NCBI GenBank assembly: GCA_034723415.1
Contig: JAYEOX010000031.1
Span: 1 to 22,229 of the forward strand
Origin: Fidelibacterota bacterium
Lineage (GTDB): Bacteria > Fidelibacterota > Fidelibacteria > Fidelibacterales > Fidelibacteraceae
DNA: 22,229 nt
Reading direction: 5' to 3'
In this document: positions 11,329-22,229 of the stretch, in pieces
How the letters are laid out: each line of letters opens with the position of its first letter
Numbering within the stretch: the stretch's first letter is position 1
Position numbers and translations under genes: made by a program
Notes under the pieces: model-generated
Database searches by the model: none
Seen by the model: only the letters and a program-made list of their open reading frames with translations
Told to the model about the DNA's origin: nothing

Positions 11329-12438
11329 ATGAATTGGCAAGAAGAACTAAAAACAAACATTACAAAAATTAACGAATTACAAAAGTTTGTTAATTTGGAC
11401 AAAAATGAAATAGAAAAATTGAAGGAAGTTGTAAAGCATCATCCTATGAATATTTCCCGATATTATTTATCATTAATTGATAAAAACAACGAAAATGATC
11501 CAATTAAAAAAATGATGATACCCTCAGTAGAGGAATTAATCCCCGGTGGCGATTATGATCCAAGTAAAGAAAAGTCAAATACAAAATTAGTTGGATTGCA
11601 ACATAAATACAGTGAAACGGCACTATTATTAGCAACGAATAGATGTGCATCATATTGTAGATATTGTTTCAGAAAAAGGATGGTAGCTCTTACAACAGGT
11701 GAAATTGCAAAAAAATATCATGATGCAATCAAATATATTAAAAATCATAATGAAATAACTAATGTTCTAATAAGTGGTGGAGATCCACTTACCTTACCTA
11801 CAAAACTTTTAAAAACACTTTTATCAAAACTCTCTCAAATTGAACATTTGAATTTCATTCGCATTGGCACCAAGGTCCCTGTTTCCTTTCCAAATAGAAT
11901 CATCAATGATAATGAATTATTAGAGTTGCTTAAAACAATTAATCAAAAAAAGAGAGTTTACATTACAACACATTTTAACCATAATAATGAAATAACAGAG
12001 AAATCTACAAATGCAATTGCAATGTTAATAAAATCCGGAATTCTTGTTAATAATCAATCTGTATTATTAAAAGGTGTAAATGATAATGCACAAGAATTAG
12101 GTTCATTACAGAAAAATTTAGTCAAAATAGGAATAAATCCATATTACATATTCCAATGCAGACCTGTGGCAAGAGTAAAAAATCATTTTCAAGTTCCAAT
12201 ATATGAGGGTATTAAAATTACCGAAGAAGCCAAAAAATATATGGATGGATACAGTAAAAAATTCAGATATATATTATCTCATACAGCGGGAAAATTTCAT
12301 GTGTTAGGCAAAGATGATAAAATGATCTACCTTAAACATTATGAAGTAAAAGACAAAAATTATTATGGAAAGATATTCAGCAGAAAAATTGATAAAAATG
12401 CCACTTGGTTAAGTGAAAAAGGATTTAAATTAATTTAA
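11329..12438 (+). CDS. KamA-family radical SAM protein (2,3-aminomutase-like)
   Basis: GLQHKY, CASYCRYCFRKR (CX3CX2C), LISGGDPL, THFNH, NQSVLLKGVND and PYYIFQC motifs. Confidence 0.92.
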   Translation: MNWQEELKTNITKINELQKFVNLDKNEIEKLKEVVKHHPMNISRYYLSLIDKNNENDPIKKMMIPSVEELIPGGDYDPSKEKSNTKLVGLQHKYSETALLLATNRCASYCRYCFRKRMVALTTGEIAKKYHDAIKYIKNHNEITNVLISGGDPLTLPTKLLKTLLSKLSQIEHLNFIRIGTKVPVSFPNRIINDNELLELLKTINQKKRVYITTHFNHNNEITEKSTNAIAMLIKSGILVNNQSVLLKGVNDNAQELGSLQKNLVKIGINPYYIFQCRPVARVKNHFQVPIYEGIKITEEAKKYMDGYSKKFRYILSHTAGKFHVLGKDDKMIYLKHYEVKDKNYYGKIFSRKIDKNATWLSEKGFKLI

Positions 12439-17955: not shown

Positions 17956-17984
17956 TTGACTTTTTAAATTAATTTAATTAAAAT
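17956..17984 (+). promoter_or_regulatory. Sigma70 promoter upstream of the GNAT gene
   Basis: TTGACT-N17-TAAAAT, followed by a GGAGG SD at 17998-18002 and a TTG start at 18013. Confidence 0.65.
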
Positions 17985-18012
17985 ACTTAAAACATCAGGA
18001 GGGAATGATATT

Positions 18013-19128
18013 TTGAAAATTATATTAGTAAAAGACAGAAAGACAAAAAAACAATTTATTCGATTACCTTGGGAAATTTATGAAAATGATCCCAATTGGG
18101 TGCAACCACTTATTATGCAAGAAAAAGAAAAGTTCAATAAAAATAAATCCCCATTTTTTGAGCATTCAGAAGCAGATTTTTTCATTGCAGAAAAAGACGG
18201 AGATATTGTTGGTAGAATTGCTGCTATAAAAAATAATAATCATTTAAAAGTTTACAACGATGATACCGGTTTTTTCGGCTTTTTTGAGTCAATAAATGAT
18301 CAAACTGTTGCTAATGCACTTTTTGATACTGCAAACAATTGGTTAAAAGAGAGAGGACTAAAAAAGATCAGAGGCCCTGAGAATTATTCTCAAAATGAGG
18401 AAGCGGGATTATTAATTGATGCTTTTGATTTGCCACCCGTAATAATGATGACTTATAATCCCCCCTATTATATTAATTTAATTGAAAATTATGGATTTAA
18501 AAAGGAAATGGACCTTTATGCTTATAACATTAAAAATATAAAACAAATTCCTTCTCGCTTAAAAAAAGCCGTTTCTTTAACAAAAAGAAGATATAATTAT
18601 AATATCAGAAAAGTAAATGTAAAAAATATTGATGCTGAAATCGAAAAGATAAAATCAGTCTATGATACTGCTTGGTCGGAAAATTGGGGTGCTGTGCCAT
18701 TTACTAAATCTGAAATAGAACACCTGAAAAAGGAACTAATACAAATATTAATTCCTGATTTGGCATTCATTGCTGAAATTGATAATAAACCTGTAGGTGT
18801 TTCAATAACAGTTCCGGATATCAATGAGGCATTAATAAAAATAAATGGTCGCCTTTTTCCTTTGGGACTTTTTAAACTTCTATGGTACCAAAGAAAGATT
18901 AATGGTGTTAGAGTACTTATATTAGGAATAATCCCCGGGCAACGAAATAAAGGTATTGATACAGCATTATACCATGAAACTTTTAAGAATACTATTAATA
19001 AAGGATTTAACAAGGGGGAAATGTCATGGATATTGGAAAATAATCATCCAATGCGTAATGCTTTAGAAAAAATATATGGTGCAAAAATATATAAAACTTA
19101 TAGAATTTATCAACAACAAATTAATTAA
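18013..19128 (+). CDS. Double-GNAT N-acyltransferase, bacterial ceramide synthase (bCerS/YghO)-like
   Basis: FIRLPWEIY..DPNWVQPL, VGRIAA, GFFGFFE, YNPPYY, AWSENWG..P, PDINEAL and EMSWILENN..M motifs. Family recognised by eye; specific function inferred. Confidence 0.8.
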   Translation: MKIILVKDRKTKKQFIRLPWEIYENDPNWVQPLIMQEKEKFNKNKSPFFEHSEADFFIAEKDGDIVGRIAAIKNNNHLKVYNDDTGFFGFFESINDQTVANALFDTANNWLKERGLKKIRGPENYSQNEEAGLLIDAFDLPPVIMMTYNPPYYINLIENYGFKKEMDLYAYNIKNIKQIPSRLKKAVSLTKRRYNYNIRKVNVKNIDAEIEKIKSVYDTAWSENWGAVPFTKSEIEHLKKELIQILIPDLAFIAEIDNKPVGVSITVPDINEALIKINGRLFPLGLFKLLWYQRKINGVRVLILGIIPGQRNKGIDTALYHETFKNTINKGFNKGEMSWILENNHPMRNALEKIYGAKIYKTYRIYQQQIN

Positions 19129-19159
19129 TCACGAATAACAATGAATGACAATTTAAGAG

Positions 19160-19183
19160 GGTTAGAAGGTTAGGAGGTTAGAA
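19160..19183. repeat. 8-bp tandem repeat x3
   Basis: GGTTAGAA GGTTAGGA GGTTAGAA. Confidence 0.85.
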
Positions 19184-19185
19184 TA

Positions 19186-19317
19186 TACCGTGCACAAAAG
19201 TGTGTCTAAATCAATGACAATTAATAACAACAAATGACTACAAATGACAATAAATGACAATCAATGACAACAAATTCCTCTGCGTCTTCTTGCACTGAGC
19301 TTGTCGAAGTGTGCGGT
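19186..19317 (+). repeat. Composite repeat element, left copy
   Basis: 25-bp arm TACCGTGCACAAAAGTGTGTCTAAA (19186-19210), six decamers of consensus NNAATGACAA (19211-19270), AAATTCCTCTGCGTCTT, then a REP-like motif and GCGGT. Confidence 0.85.
19293..19311. repeat. REP-like motif CACTGAGCTTGTCGAAGTG
   Basis: GC-rich island with CACT/AGTG closing arms around GAGCTTGTCGA. It resembles the CTTCGACAAGCTCAG dispersed repeat I recall from Bacteroidota-type genomes. Confidence 0.6.
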
Positions 19318-19326
19318 AAAGTAAAA

Positions 19327-20244
19327 ATGACAACAAATAAACACAATTTACATCAAACCCCAACTTCACTTTTAATACAATTTTATAATCTTTCAATTAG
19401 TATTTTTATTATCTTTAATTATTCTATAATTGACAATTCATTTCAATTATTGATTATACATTTATTTCTATCCTTATTTTTGTTGACAATTTCTTATGTT
19501 AATAATATTAAACCAAATATTATTTCACATCCTGCTTTTATTTTTGCTCCAATTATTTTGATTGAAATTTTCCATTATGAATCAGGGATTTTTAATTTAA
19601 TAATTTTCCCAAATTATTTTGATGAATTTATTAAGCAATTTGATATTTTTATTTTTGGACTTCTTCCAAATAATATGCTCTCAAAACTTCTACCATACAA
19701 TTTTATTCATCAACTTTTCCATTTCTTTTACTTCACTTTTTACATAATGTTGATTCTTCCACCAATAATAATCTATTCCCAAGAACGAAAAAAAACATAC
19801 GAACCAAACATATTGAATTATAAAAATTTACAGAAATATTTATTTGTTTTGCTTTTTACAATGTTATCCTGTTTTTGGATTTTTATTATTTTTCCGGTTA
19901 TCGGTCCAACAAGCCAACATAAAATTCTATTTCCGAATAACAGAGGAATGATTTCTGTTATCAATTTTCTGTTTGCGAATGGCGATTTAGATGGTGGAGC
20001 TTTTCCAAGTTCTCATGTTGCAGGAGCTTTTATTGCAACAATTTTTGTTTTTCAGTATATTAAGAAATTGAAAATTTATTTCTTAATTGCATTTATTCTA
20101 CTCTCAATTTCAACTGTTTATTGCAGTTTTCATTATGGAGTAGATGTAATAGGTGGATTTTTTGCAGGAATTATTTTCTACTTATTGGGGAATTATTTAT
20201 TTAAGAAACTTTACAAACTTCAAAAAACCAAAAGTGTAATATGA
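19327..20244 (+). CDS. PAP2-superfamily polytopic membrane enzyme, Aur1/IPC-synthase-like
   Basis: FFYFTFY, FPVIGP, AFPSSHVA and STVY..FHYGVDVIGG give a His/His/Asp triad; many TM helices. Start placed at the second MTTN (19327). Confidence 0.85.
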   Translation: MTTNKHNLHQTPTSLLIQFYNLSISIFIIFNYSIIDNSFQLLIIHLFLSLFLLTISYVNNIKPNIISHPAFIFAPIILIEIFHYESGIFNLIIFPNYFDEFIKQFDIFIFGLLPNNMLSKLLPYNFIHQLFHFFYFTFYIMLILPPIIIYSQERKKTYEPNILNYKNLQKYLFVLLFTMLSCFWIFIIFPVIGPTSQHKILFPNNRGMISVINFLFANGDLDGGAFPSSHVAGAFIATIFVFQYIKKLKIYFLIAFILLSISTVYCSFHYGVDVIGGFFAGIIFYLLGNYLFKKLYKLQKTKSVI

Positions 20245-21221
20245 AAGCATTTGTCACAGGTGCAACAGGATTTATCGGCTATCACTTAGTAAAAAAATTA
20301 CTCTCTATGAATTGGGAAGTTGTCTGCTTAAGTCGGAAAAATAGCAATAACAATACTGAATTTCAAAAAGAAGTTTCTTGGATTATTGGCGATTTATTTG
20401 ATAAAAAAGCACTTGCCGAGGGATGTTCAAATGCGGATATAATTTTTCATCTCGCAGGTCAGATTAAGGCAATAAATAAAAAAGAATTGTTTGAAACAAA
20501 TGCAAATGGAACAAAAAATCTAATCGAAGCAATTCTAAAATCCAATAAAAACACACATCTGATTTTTTTGAGTTCCCTATCTGCAAGTGGTCCGACAAAT
20601 AAAAATAAAGTAAATACAGAATCAGATAAAAATAAACCGATTTCAAATTACGGGAAAAGCAAATTATTGGCAGAAGATATTATACTAAAAAACAGAGACA
20701 ATTTATACTCCACAATTATTCGTCCGGGAATTGTCTATGGTCCCAAAGATAGAGAAACTTTATTGTTTTTCAAATTAGCGAAATTCGGAATTAATTTACA
20801 TTTGGGAATTAATGAACAACATTTAAGTATGATTTTTGTTGAAGATTTAATTCAGTTAATAATAAAAACCACAACAATAAAAACAAACTCCGGAGAGATA
20901 TTTTTTGCTTCTGATAATGATACCGGCTACTCATGGAATAAAATTATGAGAACCATTGCAAACATTATGAATAAAAAAATAGTTACAATTATAATTCCAA
21001 AATTTGTTATAAAAACAATAATATATATTTCAGTATTTTTGGCAAATATTTTTCATTATTCGACGATATTAAATTTAGATAAATATGAAGAACTAAAATA
21101 TCCTAACTGGGTTTGTTCATCACAAAAAGCAAAAAAAATACTGAAATACAACCCTGAATTTTCGTTAAAAAACGGATTGGAAAAAACTTATAAGTGGTAT
21201 AAAGAAAATGATTGGATATAA
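20241..21221 (+). CDS. Extended SDR NAD-dependent epimerase/dehydratase, ceramide reductase-like
   Basis: TGATGFIG, HLAG, FLSSLSA, YGKSK (YxxxK) and RPGIVYGP motifs; ATGA overlap with the PAP2 gene. Confidence 0.9.
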   Translation: MKAFVTGATGFIGYHLVKKLLSMNWEVVCLSRKNSNNNTEFQKEVSWIIGDLFDKKALAEGCSNADIIFHLAGQIKAINKKELFETNANGTKNLIEAILKSNKNTHLIFLSSLSASGPTNKNKVNTESDKNKPISNYGKSKLLAEDIILKNRDNLYSTIIRPGIVYGPKDRETLLFFKLAKFGINLHLGINEQHLSMIFVEDLIQLIIKTTTIKTNSGEIFFASDNDTGYSWNKIMRTIANIMNKKIVTIIIPKFVIKTIIYISVFLANIFHYSTILNLDKYEELKYPNWVCSSQKAKKILKYNPEFSLKNGLEKTYKWYKENDWI

Positions 21222-21239
21222 TAAGATTGAATTAACCCC

Positions 21240-21419
21240 ACCGCCAAGACGCAAAAACACAGAGGAATTTATTGTCATTTATTGTCATTGGTTGTCATAT
21301 TCACCACAAAAGAACACAAAGAACACAGAGATTATCTAATTCATCTAATTATTATCATCGAATTAATCGAATTTATCTAATTGGTTATCATTGGTTTAGA
21401 CACACTTTTGTGCACGGTA
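21240..21419 (-). repeat. Composite repeat element, right (inverted) copy
   Basis: 21395-21419 is the exact reverse complement of 19186-19210. 21260-21298 reverse-complements to ATGACAACCAATGACAATAAATGACAATAAATTCCTCTG. About 80 bp of other short repeats lie between the two parts. Confidence 0.85.
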
Positions 21420-21449
21420 CCCTTCTTAATGGCTCAACATTAAATAACT

Positions 21450-21567
21450 CTTTGCGTTCTTTCTTTCTTTGCAAACTTTGCGTGAAATCTTTTTCGTGCA
21501 TTTTCAACTTTCAATTCTCAATTAAAATAATCCGTGTTAATCCGCATTATCCGCGAAAATCCGTGTG
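21450..21567. repeat. Mosaic of short tandem repeat modules
   Basis: CTTTGCGT/CTTTGCAAA/CTTTGCGT (21450-21487); TTTTCAA CTTTCAA TTCTCAA (21501-21521); ATCCG x4 at 9-10 bp spacing (21530-21563). Confidence 0.75.
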
Positions 21568-21572
21568 CTAAC

Positions 21573-21604
21573 AAAAAAACACCCGATATTACTACCGAGT
21601 GTTT
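21573..21604 (-). terminator. Rho-independent terminator in minus orientation
   Basis: Minus strand AAACACTCGGTA-GTAA-TATCGGGTGTTT-TTTT: a 12-bp stem with two G.U pairs, a GNRA loop and a T7 tract. Confidence 0.7.
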
Positions 21605-21678: not shown

Positions 21679-22050
21679 ATGATCGATGAATTTGTGATTT
21701 CAAAAACAGCAAAATTATTTAATGTCTTATCAAGTGAAATACGAATTAAAATAATTTATCATTTGATGGAAAATAATAGGCTATCTGTAACAGAATTATC
21801 TGAAAAATTAAATATTCCACAAAACACATTATCATCTCACCTAAAAATTTTATATGATGGTTCATACATCAATAAAGAACAAAAATGGCGAAATGTTAAT
21901 TATTCAATCAGAGAAAAGAAATTAGAAAAAATTATTGAAATTGCGATATCCATTCTTAACAACAAATGGGAAGGTAATTGGGAAAAAATTGATAGAGCAA
22001 AGAAAAGTTTAAATAAAATGATTAATAGTCAAAATAAAAAAAGGAAGTAA
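21679..22050 (+). CDS. ArsR/SmtB-family transcriptional regulator
   Basis: FNVLS..IRIKII, LSVTELSEKLNIPQNTLSSHLKIL winged HTH and K..RNVNYSI; GGAG SD. Confidence 0.9.
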   Translation: MIDEFVISKTAKLFNVLSSEIRIKIIYHLMENNRLSVTELSEKLNIPQNTLSSHLKILYDGSYINKEQKWRNVNYSIREKKLEKIIEIAISILNNKWEGNWEKIDRAKKSLNKMINSQNKKRK

Positions 22051-22052
22051 AA

Positions 22053-22229
22053 ATGACAAAAACAAAATTAAAAGTTGGAAAAATTTCTAAACCTCGTTTT
22101 GAGTTTCGCACTTTTGGCCAAAATTTTGAATCTGAAAGGAAAAAAATGTCAGAACTTTCTGTACCGGTTCCCGAAAAGGTAAAAGAGAGAAATTCTGAAG
22201 AAACATATATTGTTTCCAAAACAAATGAT
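22053..22229 (+). CDS. Hypothetical protein, 5' part (runs off the window; absent from the ORF track)
   Basis: ATG two nt after the ArsR stop with AAGGA upstream. Open frame MTKTKLKVGKISKPRFEFRTFGQNFESERKKMSELSVPVPEKVKERNSEETYIVSKTND continues to the window end. Confidence 0.8.
   Translation, partial: MTKTKLKVGKISKPRFEFRTFGQNFESERKKMSELSVPVPEKVKERNSEETYIVSKTND

Follow-up and report, generated by a model that had tools for sequence, protein, structure and literature searches.

In the pathway described for Caulobacter, the ceramide backbone is built by serine palmitoyltransferase (Spt), the GNAT-type ceramide synthase bCerS and the reductase CerR, with acylation coming before reduction (PMC11087976); knockouts in Bacteroides fragilis indicate the same order (bioRxiv 10.1101/2023.05.23.541633), and a reduction-first route also exists (PMC9278070). 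Counterparts in E. coli have been listed, YghO/ECD_02850 for Caulobacter CC_1154 and ECD_02852 for the reductase, their activities being suggested but unproven there (PMC9386255). As to the head group, four Bacteroides species have ceramide phosphoethanolamine (Cer-PE) as a core lipid and as their most abundant sphingolipid, ceramide phosphoinositol (Cer-PI) being patchy (PMC10056535, PMC10191378), and deletion of BT_1522, the phosphoinositol dihydroceramide synthase of B. thetaiotaomicron, leaves phosphoethanolamine dihydroceramide (PE-DHC) unaltered (PMC9246714). A synthase for ethanolamine phosphorylceramide (EPC) was not found by BLAST in a 2022 study in which trace inositol phosphorylceramide (IPC) persisted in the BT_1522 mutant (PMC8791184), and the accessible part of a further account gives Spt, KDSR, CerS, CerR and CGT, with no Cer-PE synthase (PMC10865984). 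Here we describe three genes on a 22,229-nucleotide stretch of DNA from a Fidelibacterota bacterium (‘the window’; the whole of contig C31 in a 1.94-Mb genome, G000, that is 94% complete), the middle one of which belongs to an Aur1-fold family that may include such a synthase. The genes are:

18013..19128, + strand: bCerS/YghO-family acyltransferase (predicted), TTG start, 371 aa
19327..20244, + strand: 305-aa PAP2 membrane enzyme of predicted Aur1 fold, a putative transferase of phospho-headgroups to ceramide (other possible start: 19264)
20241..21221, + strand: 326-aa extended short-chain dehydrogenase/reductase (SDR) of CerR type, predicted to reduce ceramide precursors; overlaps the PAP2 gene in ATGA

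All three open reading frames are co-oriented, as a preliminary description of this DNA had them, and the ATGA shared by the PAP2 and SDR genes is real (20241-20244); also in line with that description, neither an spt nor an acyl carrier protein (ACP) gene is found among the window's open reading frames.

The first product aligns over its full length with YghO of E. coli BL21(DE3) (37% identity, 377 columns, E 4e-82), shares 32% identity with a Sphingomonas homologue, and has whole-length matches to YghO-type proteins in 45 plasmid-collection records. Throughout, proteins of E. coli BL21(DE3), Sphingomonas parapaucimobilis, B. finegoldii and further Bacteroides-genus genomes stand in as references for those of Caulobacter, B. 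thetaiotaomicron and B. fragilis. The match to Pfam PF00583 is weak, there is no hydrophobic segment at the cut-off used, and no PDB sequence matches at E<=1. An unrooted tree of 37 rows places the protein with those of E. coli, Roseomonas and Sphingomonas (28-row side, SH-aLRT 100); this placement, the full-length YghO homology and the presence of both an Spt candidate in the genome and the neighbouring SDR in the window bear out its earlier designation as a ceramide synthase-like GNAT. We take the locus tags CCNA_01212 and CCNA_01222 to be equivalent to CC_1154 and CC_1164. A second bCerS paralogue, on C11, has 27% identity to the window GNAT and groups with the B. finegoldii protein. Its gene lies head to head with that of a 281-aa protein consisting of a lone E2 catalytic domain of 2-oxoacid dehydrogenase type (G000:C11:5147-7260); the pair is kept in the same-genus genome G001, at 87% each, and possibly constitutes a second acylation route.

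The SDR carries the motifs TGATGFIG, S112 and Y137xxxK141, is 28% identical to BL21(DE3) epi (ECD_02852; E 1e-41), and is the only hit in its genome of the E. coli CerR homologue as well as the best hit of the B. finegoldii one. A hidden Markov model (HMM) built from 28 SDRs of spt-containing loci gives it 317 bits, a figure that is partly circular in that the SDRs used for training were selected for their resemblance to the window protein itself; B. finegoldii reaches 251 bits. The independent part of this result is the high scores of the proteobacterial proteins (209 bits for BL21 epi, 208 for the Sphingomonas homologue), set against <=65 bits for the other SDRs of G000 and <=74 for unrelated SDRs. 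The best NCBIfam model, HpnA, lies far below its cut-off, and is likewise the best sub-threshold model for the E. coli and Sphingomonas CerR homologues. Motifs, genome hit and HMM thus place the protein closer to CerR than to other SDRs, upholding the assignment first proposed. Its N-terminus leads directly into the Rossmann motif, leaving no room for a signal peptide; CerR is periplasmic in Caulobacter (PMC11087976).

According to the preliminary description, the lack of an Spt orthologue from a complete genome would tell against a sphingolipid module; G000 has a strong candidate on C94 (C94:2358-3539). This scores 497.6 bits to the SPT structures 3a2b/8guh, where the next enzyme in the PDB reaches 334 and the cysteate acyltransferase 28eh 252; the best of 12 listed NCBIfam models is SerpalmtaseCFB (NF047600) at 632.3 bits, just under the curated cut-off of 640. 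Kbl is a separate gene, on C82. The spt candidate has a third-position GC content (GC3) of 0.30, high for the genome (z +3.0), and is 80% identical to the copy in G001. Of the two ACP genes found, the first belongs to the fab cluster and the second stands by itself on C87, so that neither adjoins spt; no match to AcpR was found in G000.

With bCerS and CerR homologues and an Spt candidate all present, the backbone therefore appears to be that of the known pathway, and the trio is likely the downstream part of it; very probably, judging from homology, Spt, bCerS and CerR make a dihydroceramide backbone. Spt would condense serine and an acyl thioester to 3-ketosphinganine, which bCerS would N-acylate before CerR reduces the 3-keto group, if the order seen in Caulobacter and B. 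fragilis carries over. The likeness to the Caulobacter/E. coli BL21(DE3) system thus lies in the full-length bCerS and CerR homologues, the Spt candidate and the soluble/peripheral-type proteins, whereas here spt is unlinked and Bacteroidota-type, a PAP2 gene stands between bcerS and cerR, AcpR is unmatched, neither an acyl-ACP synthetase nor lptFG is in the window, and the genome has a second, Bacteroides-type bCerS. Across 41 genomes of the phylum (G000 included), Spt is matched at E<=1e-100 in 26 and bCerS in 19. In genus g2, which belongs to the host's family, 13 of 14 genomes have Spt and none of the 14 has a bCerS match; at the two loci examined (G007:C1:2026725-2028781, or L300, and G005:C111, or L304) a classical short-chain reductase gene comes after spt, which suggests a reduction-first route with another acyltransferase.

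Ribosomal proteins, put forward earlier as a means of placing the host, do so in part: the 90% cluster of S9 has a Candidatus Neomarinimicrobiota member, but S2 (52% and 53%) leaves the phylum and Bacteroidota unseparated. Of the three Atlas clusters shown for the PAP2 protein, two are most often Fidelibacterota. Taking Fidelibacterota and Ca. Neomarinimicrobiota to be the same phylum as Marinisomatota, we place the host probably in the latter. Marinisomatota were proposed in 2024 as potential sphingolipid producers, though not shown as such in culture (PMC11334938), and the earlier phrase ‘lineage not known to make sphingolipids’ was to this extent overstated.

The middle product matches Pfam PF14378 (44.6 bits) and has six hydrophobic segments. 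Its AlphaFold model (pLDDT 95.5) finds its best structural match in fungal Aur1 (9ivc; Z 17.0, rmsd 4.0, 253 residues aligned), the next match having Z 13.7 with 173 aligned, and the top two Foldseek matches are both Aur1 (E 6e-5). The FPSxH and HYxxD motifs noted in the preliminary description are present as FPSSH and HYGVD; H230, H269 and D273 (305-aa numbering), which align with FPSLH and HHYFVD of Aur1 (9ivc, 9vj3, 9vj4), are invariant in 107 family sequences. Phosphatases of the PAP2 superfamily carry the motifs KxxxxxxRP and SRxxxxxHxxxD. The window protein has STVYCSFHYGVD where phosphatases have SR...H, with Thr at the position of the Arg, and has no KxxxxxxRP at the aligned position; across the family, the phosphatase C3 Arg (H-6) is absent from all 116 of the 117 sequences that match the pattern, one being unmatched. 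Since the family lacks this Arg and its best fold match is Aur1, we read the protein as a transferase rather than a phosphatase; on its sequence and predicted structure it is probably a ceramide phospho-headgroup transferase. Phospho-histidine transfer is the chemistry of the Aur1 and sphingomyelin synthase (SMS) families; in the same manner, the enzyme would take the phospho-headgroup of a glycerophospholipid onto its catalytic His (H230/H269/D273 triad), then pass it to the C1 hydroxyl of ceramide, releasing diacylglycerol.

Whilst the fold is that of Aur1, identity to the fungal enzyme is 20% and the donor is probably not phosphatidylinositol (PI). The nearest bacterial comparison is BT_1522, itself an Aur1 relative and alike in its PAP2_3 domain, PSxH and HYxxD motifs, absent C3 Arg and length of ~305 aa. 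The window protein, however, has no match to NF052609 at E<=0.01, where a BT_1522-type positive control scores 564 bits (cut-off 480), and reaches Aur1 at E 2.5e-4 rather than the 2e-16 of BT_1522-type proteins. In a quick LG+G4 tree, made from 68 rows picked by hand (no approximately unbiased test, no eukaryotic Aur1), six BT_1522-type rows make up their own group (support 100, branch 2.24), so that a long branch splits them from the window protein, which lies in a 52-row group (92, not starred) together with the Bacteroides proteins encoded next to cerR; the BT_1522 side also takes in two odd members of the family (92). The BT_1522 type is patchy and sits in an inositol operon (inositol-phosphate synthase, MIPS; PIP synthase; PIP phosphatase), none of whose genes is in the window, whereas the window family travels with the genes for ceramide and belongs to the Bacteroides core. 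Of the earlier label ‘Aur1/IPC-synthase-like’, then, the Aur1-like fold and the ceramide-gene linkage stand, but the protein falls outside the NF052609/BT_1522 family of IPC synthases and inositol genes are not needed; the GNAT and the SDR group with bCerS and CerR as proposed, the PAP2 protein with its named relatives only in part. Its family, as yet uncharacterised, represents a variant within an enzyme type that is known.

Neighbouring genes were counted at the best 80 of at least 600 stretches from a PAP2-family profile scan of species genomes, with flanks of up to 7 kb on each side; several loci are short, and related genomes among them are not independent. bCerS is present at 54, a CerR-type SDR at 44 and Spt at 37, with at least one of them at 63 and all three at 28. 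These loci span Gemmatimonadota, Verrucomicrobiota, Cloacimonadota, Bacteroidota and Planctomycetota, together with Fibrobacterota, Krumholzibacteriota, Thermodesulfobacteriota, Myxococcota and Neomarinimicrobiota. Queries for MIPS and for IPCT-like, PgsA-, PssA- and PgpA-like proteins matched at none of the 80, and a DIPPS-like query at one. A second sample, of 24 metagenome loci of the closest PAP2 group, has bCerS or CerR at nine and the order bcerS-pap2-cerR at four. In the same-genus genomes G001 and G003 the contig breaks off shortly beyond bcerS, at 65 and 187 nt respectively (in G003 inside the repeat described below), and the cerR of G001 starts another contig; because of these contig ends, the missing PAP2 gene is not taken as a loss.

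The family is most regular in Bacteroides (genus assigned by inference, the examined PAP2 proteins being 70-95% identical to that of B. finegoldii), where it occurs in 61 of 61 genomes, with MIPS in 53; the PAP2 gene directly follows cerR in 26 of 26 loci examined, including those of all eight MIPS-less genomes, and 19 of the 61 genomes have no second PAP2_3 match. In B. finegoldii the SDR-PAP2 pair lies between rnr and dusB. This arrangement of a CerR-type SDR followed by PAP2 invites comparison with the B. fragilis CerS BF9343_4218 and CerR BF9343_4240, of which the SDR is a possible orthologue. Outside Bacteroides the family is patchy in the order of G041: PAP2_3 is found in 4 of 61 members of that genome's family and the PAP2-family profile in 17 of 151 members of its order.

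Several further arrangements were seen. Two PAP2 genes of the family share an operon at L067:1894-7642 (also with two SDRs) and at L280:4803-8770, and may reflect two head groups. Cloacimonadota loci such as L060, L099 and L102 have bcerS-pap2 pairs without cerR, and 16 bcerS-pap2 loci of that phylum share a membrane protein, the start of which resembles PlsY. At L139:8620-13477, in the actinomycete Nonomuraea gerenzanensis, spt-like, bcerS, cerR and PAP2-family genes lie together, the spt-like match being split over two frames.

Which head group is transferred is a more tentative matter. The core presence of the PAP2 family in Bacteroides matches the distribution of Cer-PE, and we favour ethanolamine, with phosphatidylethanolamine (PE) as donor; our overall reading, at a probability of roughly 45%, is that the family is the missing bacterial Cer-PE synthase, spread over some ten phyla and making PE-DHC in Bacteroides and Marinisomatota. 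PE is the most likely single donor, more likely than an inositol lipid, and takes a little over half of the odds given to a transferase. MIPS and Psd were sought in 50 of the 80 carrier genomes (picked mainly for loci with ceramide genes; completeness not given) and were found in 23 and 42 respectively. Two single-chromosome carriers (G333, G044) and three of the same phylum that are 97-99% complete (G032, G035, G040) have Psd and no MIPS match; the pssA- and psd-like genes of G000 (psd named from sequence) are on C75. Eukaryotic EPC synthases of the SMS family (human SMSr, 8ijq/8ijr; TbSLS2) would share the predicted chemistry, PE and ceramide giving EPC and diacylglycerol, and the fold at Z 11.8-12.4, but with 9-12% identity and no sequence-level match in PDB searches they are a possible functional analogue and not an orthologue.

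The residue before the C3 His offers a further hint. It is Phe in the window protein and, over 117 family members, Tyr in 47, Ala in 36, Phe in 18, Met in 10 and Leu in one, five being unmatched; Bacteroidota members of the family have Ala, in contrast to the His of Aur1 and of 25 of 25 BT_1522-type proteins. We take this position to be the informative one of the trypanosome synthases. There, the residue next to the catalytic His predicts the product, Ser giving IPC and Phe/Tyr giving EPC or sphingomyelin (PMC11796370); carried over to the PAP2 family by analogy, the rule would lend weak support to ethanolamine. We found neither a bacterial Cer-PE synthase nor a PAP2-cerR link in the open-access literature, and a prior assignment elsewhere is possible; BT_3075 occurs once in the accessible literature, as a qPCR target.

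A number of observations weigh against this ethanolamine reading. The search for inositol-phosphate synthase suggested in the preliminary description finds MIPS in G000 (C51:434-1798), with an adjacent IPCT-like NTP transferase, and the genome has a DIPPS-like CDP-alcohol phosphotransferase, which makes a supply of PI probable. Psd is widespread in bacteria (7 of 14 controls), which makes 42 of 50 weak support; eight of the 50 carriers have no Psd match, four of these having MIPS, and among those with MIPS are the two Fibrobacteraceae and the two Krumholzibacteriia genomes. The window PAP2 is 24% identical to that of B. finegoldii, and trypanosome synthases >90% identical differ in head group (PMC11796370), so that specificity need not be shared. 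Seventeen of the 80 genome loci and 15 of the 24 metagenome loci have no nearby ceramide gene; many of these are short, L278, L284 and L288 not being among the short ones. Genus g3 has bcerS-cerR without a full-length PAP2 match, single-contig G010 included. The operons of G035, G040 and 2 of the 24 metagenome loci include a CDP-alcohol phosphotransferase gene. The PAP2-family profile matches B. subtilis PgpB at E 1.4e-7 (60 positions), compared with 1.8e-5 for Aur1 (269 positions). Black Sea lipidomes, in the accessible part of their description, comprise seven subclasses with no phospho-ceramides; phospho-ceramides have been noted in hydrothermal sediments (PMC12619533). To these are added the sub-threshold score of Spt and the circularity in the SDR HMM mentioned above.

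The inositol gene cluster on C51 deserves a remark of its own: at G000:C51:434-3721 it holds MIPS, the IPCT-like NTP transferase and a third protein which resembles CDP-glycerol glycerophosphotransferases in sequence, and its inositol may be destined for a polymer at the cell surface instead of a lipid.

The alternative that fares best keeps the same backbone and gives it another head group: phosphoglycerol from phosphatidylglycerol, phosphocholine, or whatever is made by the CDP-alcohol phosphotransferase that some operons encode:

L170:7487-8380, L175:7587-8534, L293 and L295: in-operon DIPPS-like phosphotransferase, in genomes without a MIPS match
C17:19346-20251: G000 homologue of the in-operon phosphotransferase, 33-37% identity

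That this gene should be built into the operons of the MIPS-less G035 and G040, as well as of L293 and L295, and have a homologue on C17, speaks for such a product, as do the pgsA- and pgpA-like genes of G000, the Phe of the window protein where Bacteroidota members have Ala, and the phosphoglycerol dihydroceramide considered probable for Porphyromonas (PMC9246714). However, the phosphotransferase is near just one of the 80 genome loci, and Cer-PE, the sphingolipid most abundant in Bacteroides, accords with the core presence of PAP2 there; we consider this alternative unlikely.

Less likely again is the original proposal, an IPC synthase using PI from a CDP-inositol route. It draws on Aur1 being the best match both structurally and in single-sequence PDB searches, on the inositol genes of G000, on an IPCT-DIPPS-like gene 1.5 kb from the PAP2 gene of G039, and on the Fibrobacteraceae and Krumholzibacteriia carriers that have MIPS without Psd. 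Set against these are the absence of an NF052609 match with the much poorer Aur1 E-value than BT_1522-type proteins achieve, the 27 of 50 carriers without a MIPS match, and the fact that neither MIPS nor IPCT-like genes adjoin any of the 80 loci. Moreover, Bacteroides with both enzymes lose nearly all IPC when BT_1522 alone is deleted (PMC9246714, PMC8791184).

It is distinctly improbable that the PAP2 protein is instead a lipid phosphatase or phospholipase-C-like hydrolase acting on ceramide-1-phosphate or a related intermediate. The superfamily fold would permit it, PgpB, LpxE and G6PC1 following Aur1 at Z 13-13.7; the only NCBIfam hit is a weak one to an undecaprenyl-diphosphate phosphatase model; and hydrolase activity is reported for SMS-family enzymes. 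Yet the Arg of the phosphatase motif given above, seen in PgpB, is absent from the family, the C1 region of which, FPxxGP, is like the FPAAPP of Aur1, and the structural alignment extends over 253 residues with Aur1 against 162-186 with phosphatases. Finally, that the trio acts on another aminolipid (a sulfonolipid or other alpha-oxoamine product), or that its genes are not functionally linked here, is very improbable: an unlinked Spt just under its cut-off, the 27% bCerS paralogue on C11 and the HpnA match of the SDR point that way, but the C94 protein scores 498 bits on SPT against 252 on cysteate acyltransferase 28eh, spt-bcerS-cerR-pap2 clusters occur in 28 of the 80 loci, and the E. coli and Sphingomonas CerR homologues share the same sub-threshold HpnA match.

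Around the three genes the window contains the following elements:

17956..17984, + strand: sigma70-like promoter match TTGACT-17-TAAAAT, 10/12 consensus bases, unproven
17997..18002, + strand: AGGAGG ribosome-binding site, separated by 10 nt from the TTG start codon
19129..19326, no strand assigned: dispersed repeat with tandem 10-nt AATGACAA units, intergenic, outside the pathway
21254..21419, no strand assigned: inverted copies of the upstream intergenic repeat (arms 19244-19288/21254-21298, 87%; 19186-19225/21380-21419, 90%)

The trio had been credited with its own promoter. A consensus match is indeed present, but a separate promoter is unproven; the region contains 46 such sites, compared with 35.5 +/- 6.6 in shuffled sequence, and the stretch following the upstream htrA yielded no terminator, so that read-through from htrA into the trio may occur. 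The GNAT and PAP2 genes are separated by 198 nt, a gap absent from the preliminary description, which hold the dispersed repeat (35 BLASTN matches genome-wide, self-hit included). The longest PAP2 open reading frame starts at 19264, inside the AATGACAA repeat, and the closest homologues (n=18) are mostly 293-323 aa with one of 239 aa; since these are around 300 aa and the 19264 start falls in the repeat, 19327 is the most likely start. Modular intergenic repeats (window 19129-19326 and 21222-21600) have 35 and 38 BLASTN matches in the genome, several of them near contig ends.

The idea that pap2 and cerR, flanked by the inverted repeats, were recently acquired as a cassette is not supported, because their GC3 is ordinary (z -0.2 and +0.7), the repeat is genome-wide and the same gene order is found in four other loci, though cerR is only 58% identical to its counterpart in same-genus G001, against 90% for bcerS. 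Elsewhere in the window, a KamA-family radical SAM protein (11329-12438; TIGR00238 above cut-off, specific aminomutase cut-offs unmet) is encoded between asnS and a SLOG-family gene, and 21679-22229 holds an ArsR-family regulator followed by an open reading frame cut by the contig end.

The backbone being known and Marinisomatota having already been proposed as producers, the locus taken alone is a modest addition. Its middle gene, however, marks an uncharacterised Aur1-fold family as a fourth regular member of bacterial ceramide operons, and offers a testable candidate for the synthase of the most abundant Bacteroides sphingolipid. Should the ethanolamine reading be true, Cer-PE would become removable from Bacteroides without the loss of all sphingolipids, as host-microbe studies need, and the family would provide a gene marker for phosphosphingolipids in uncultured lineages.

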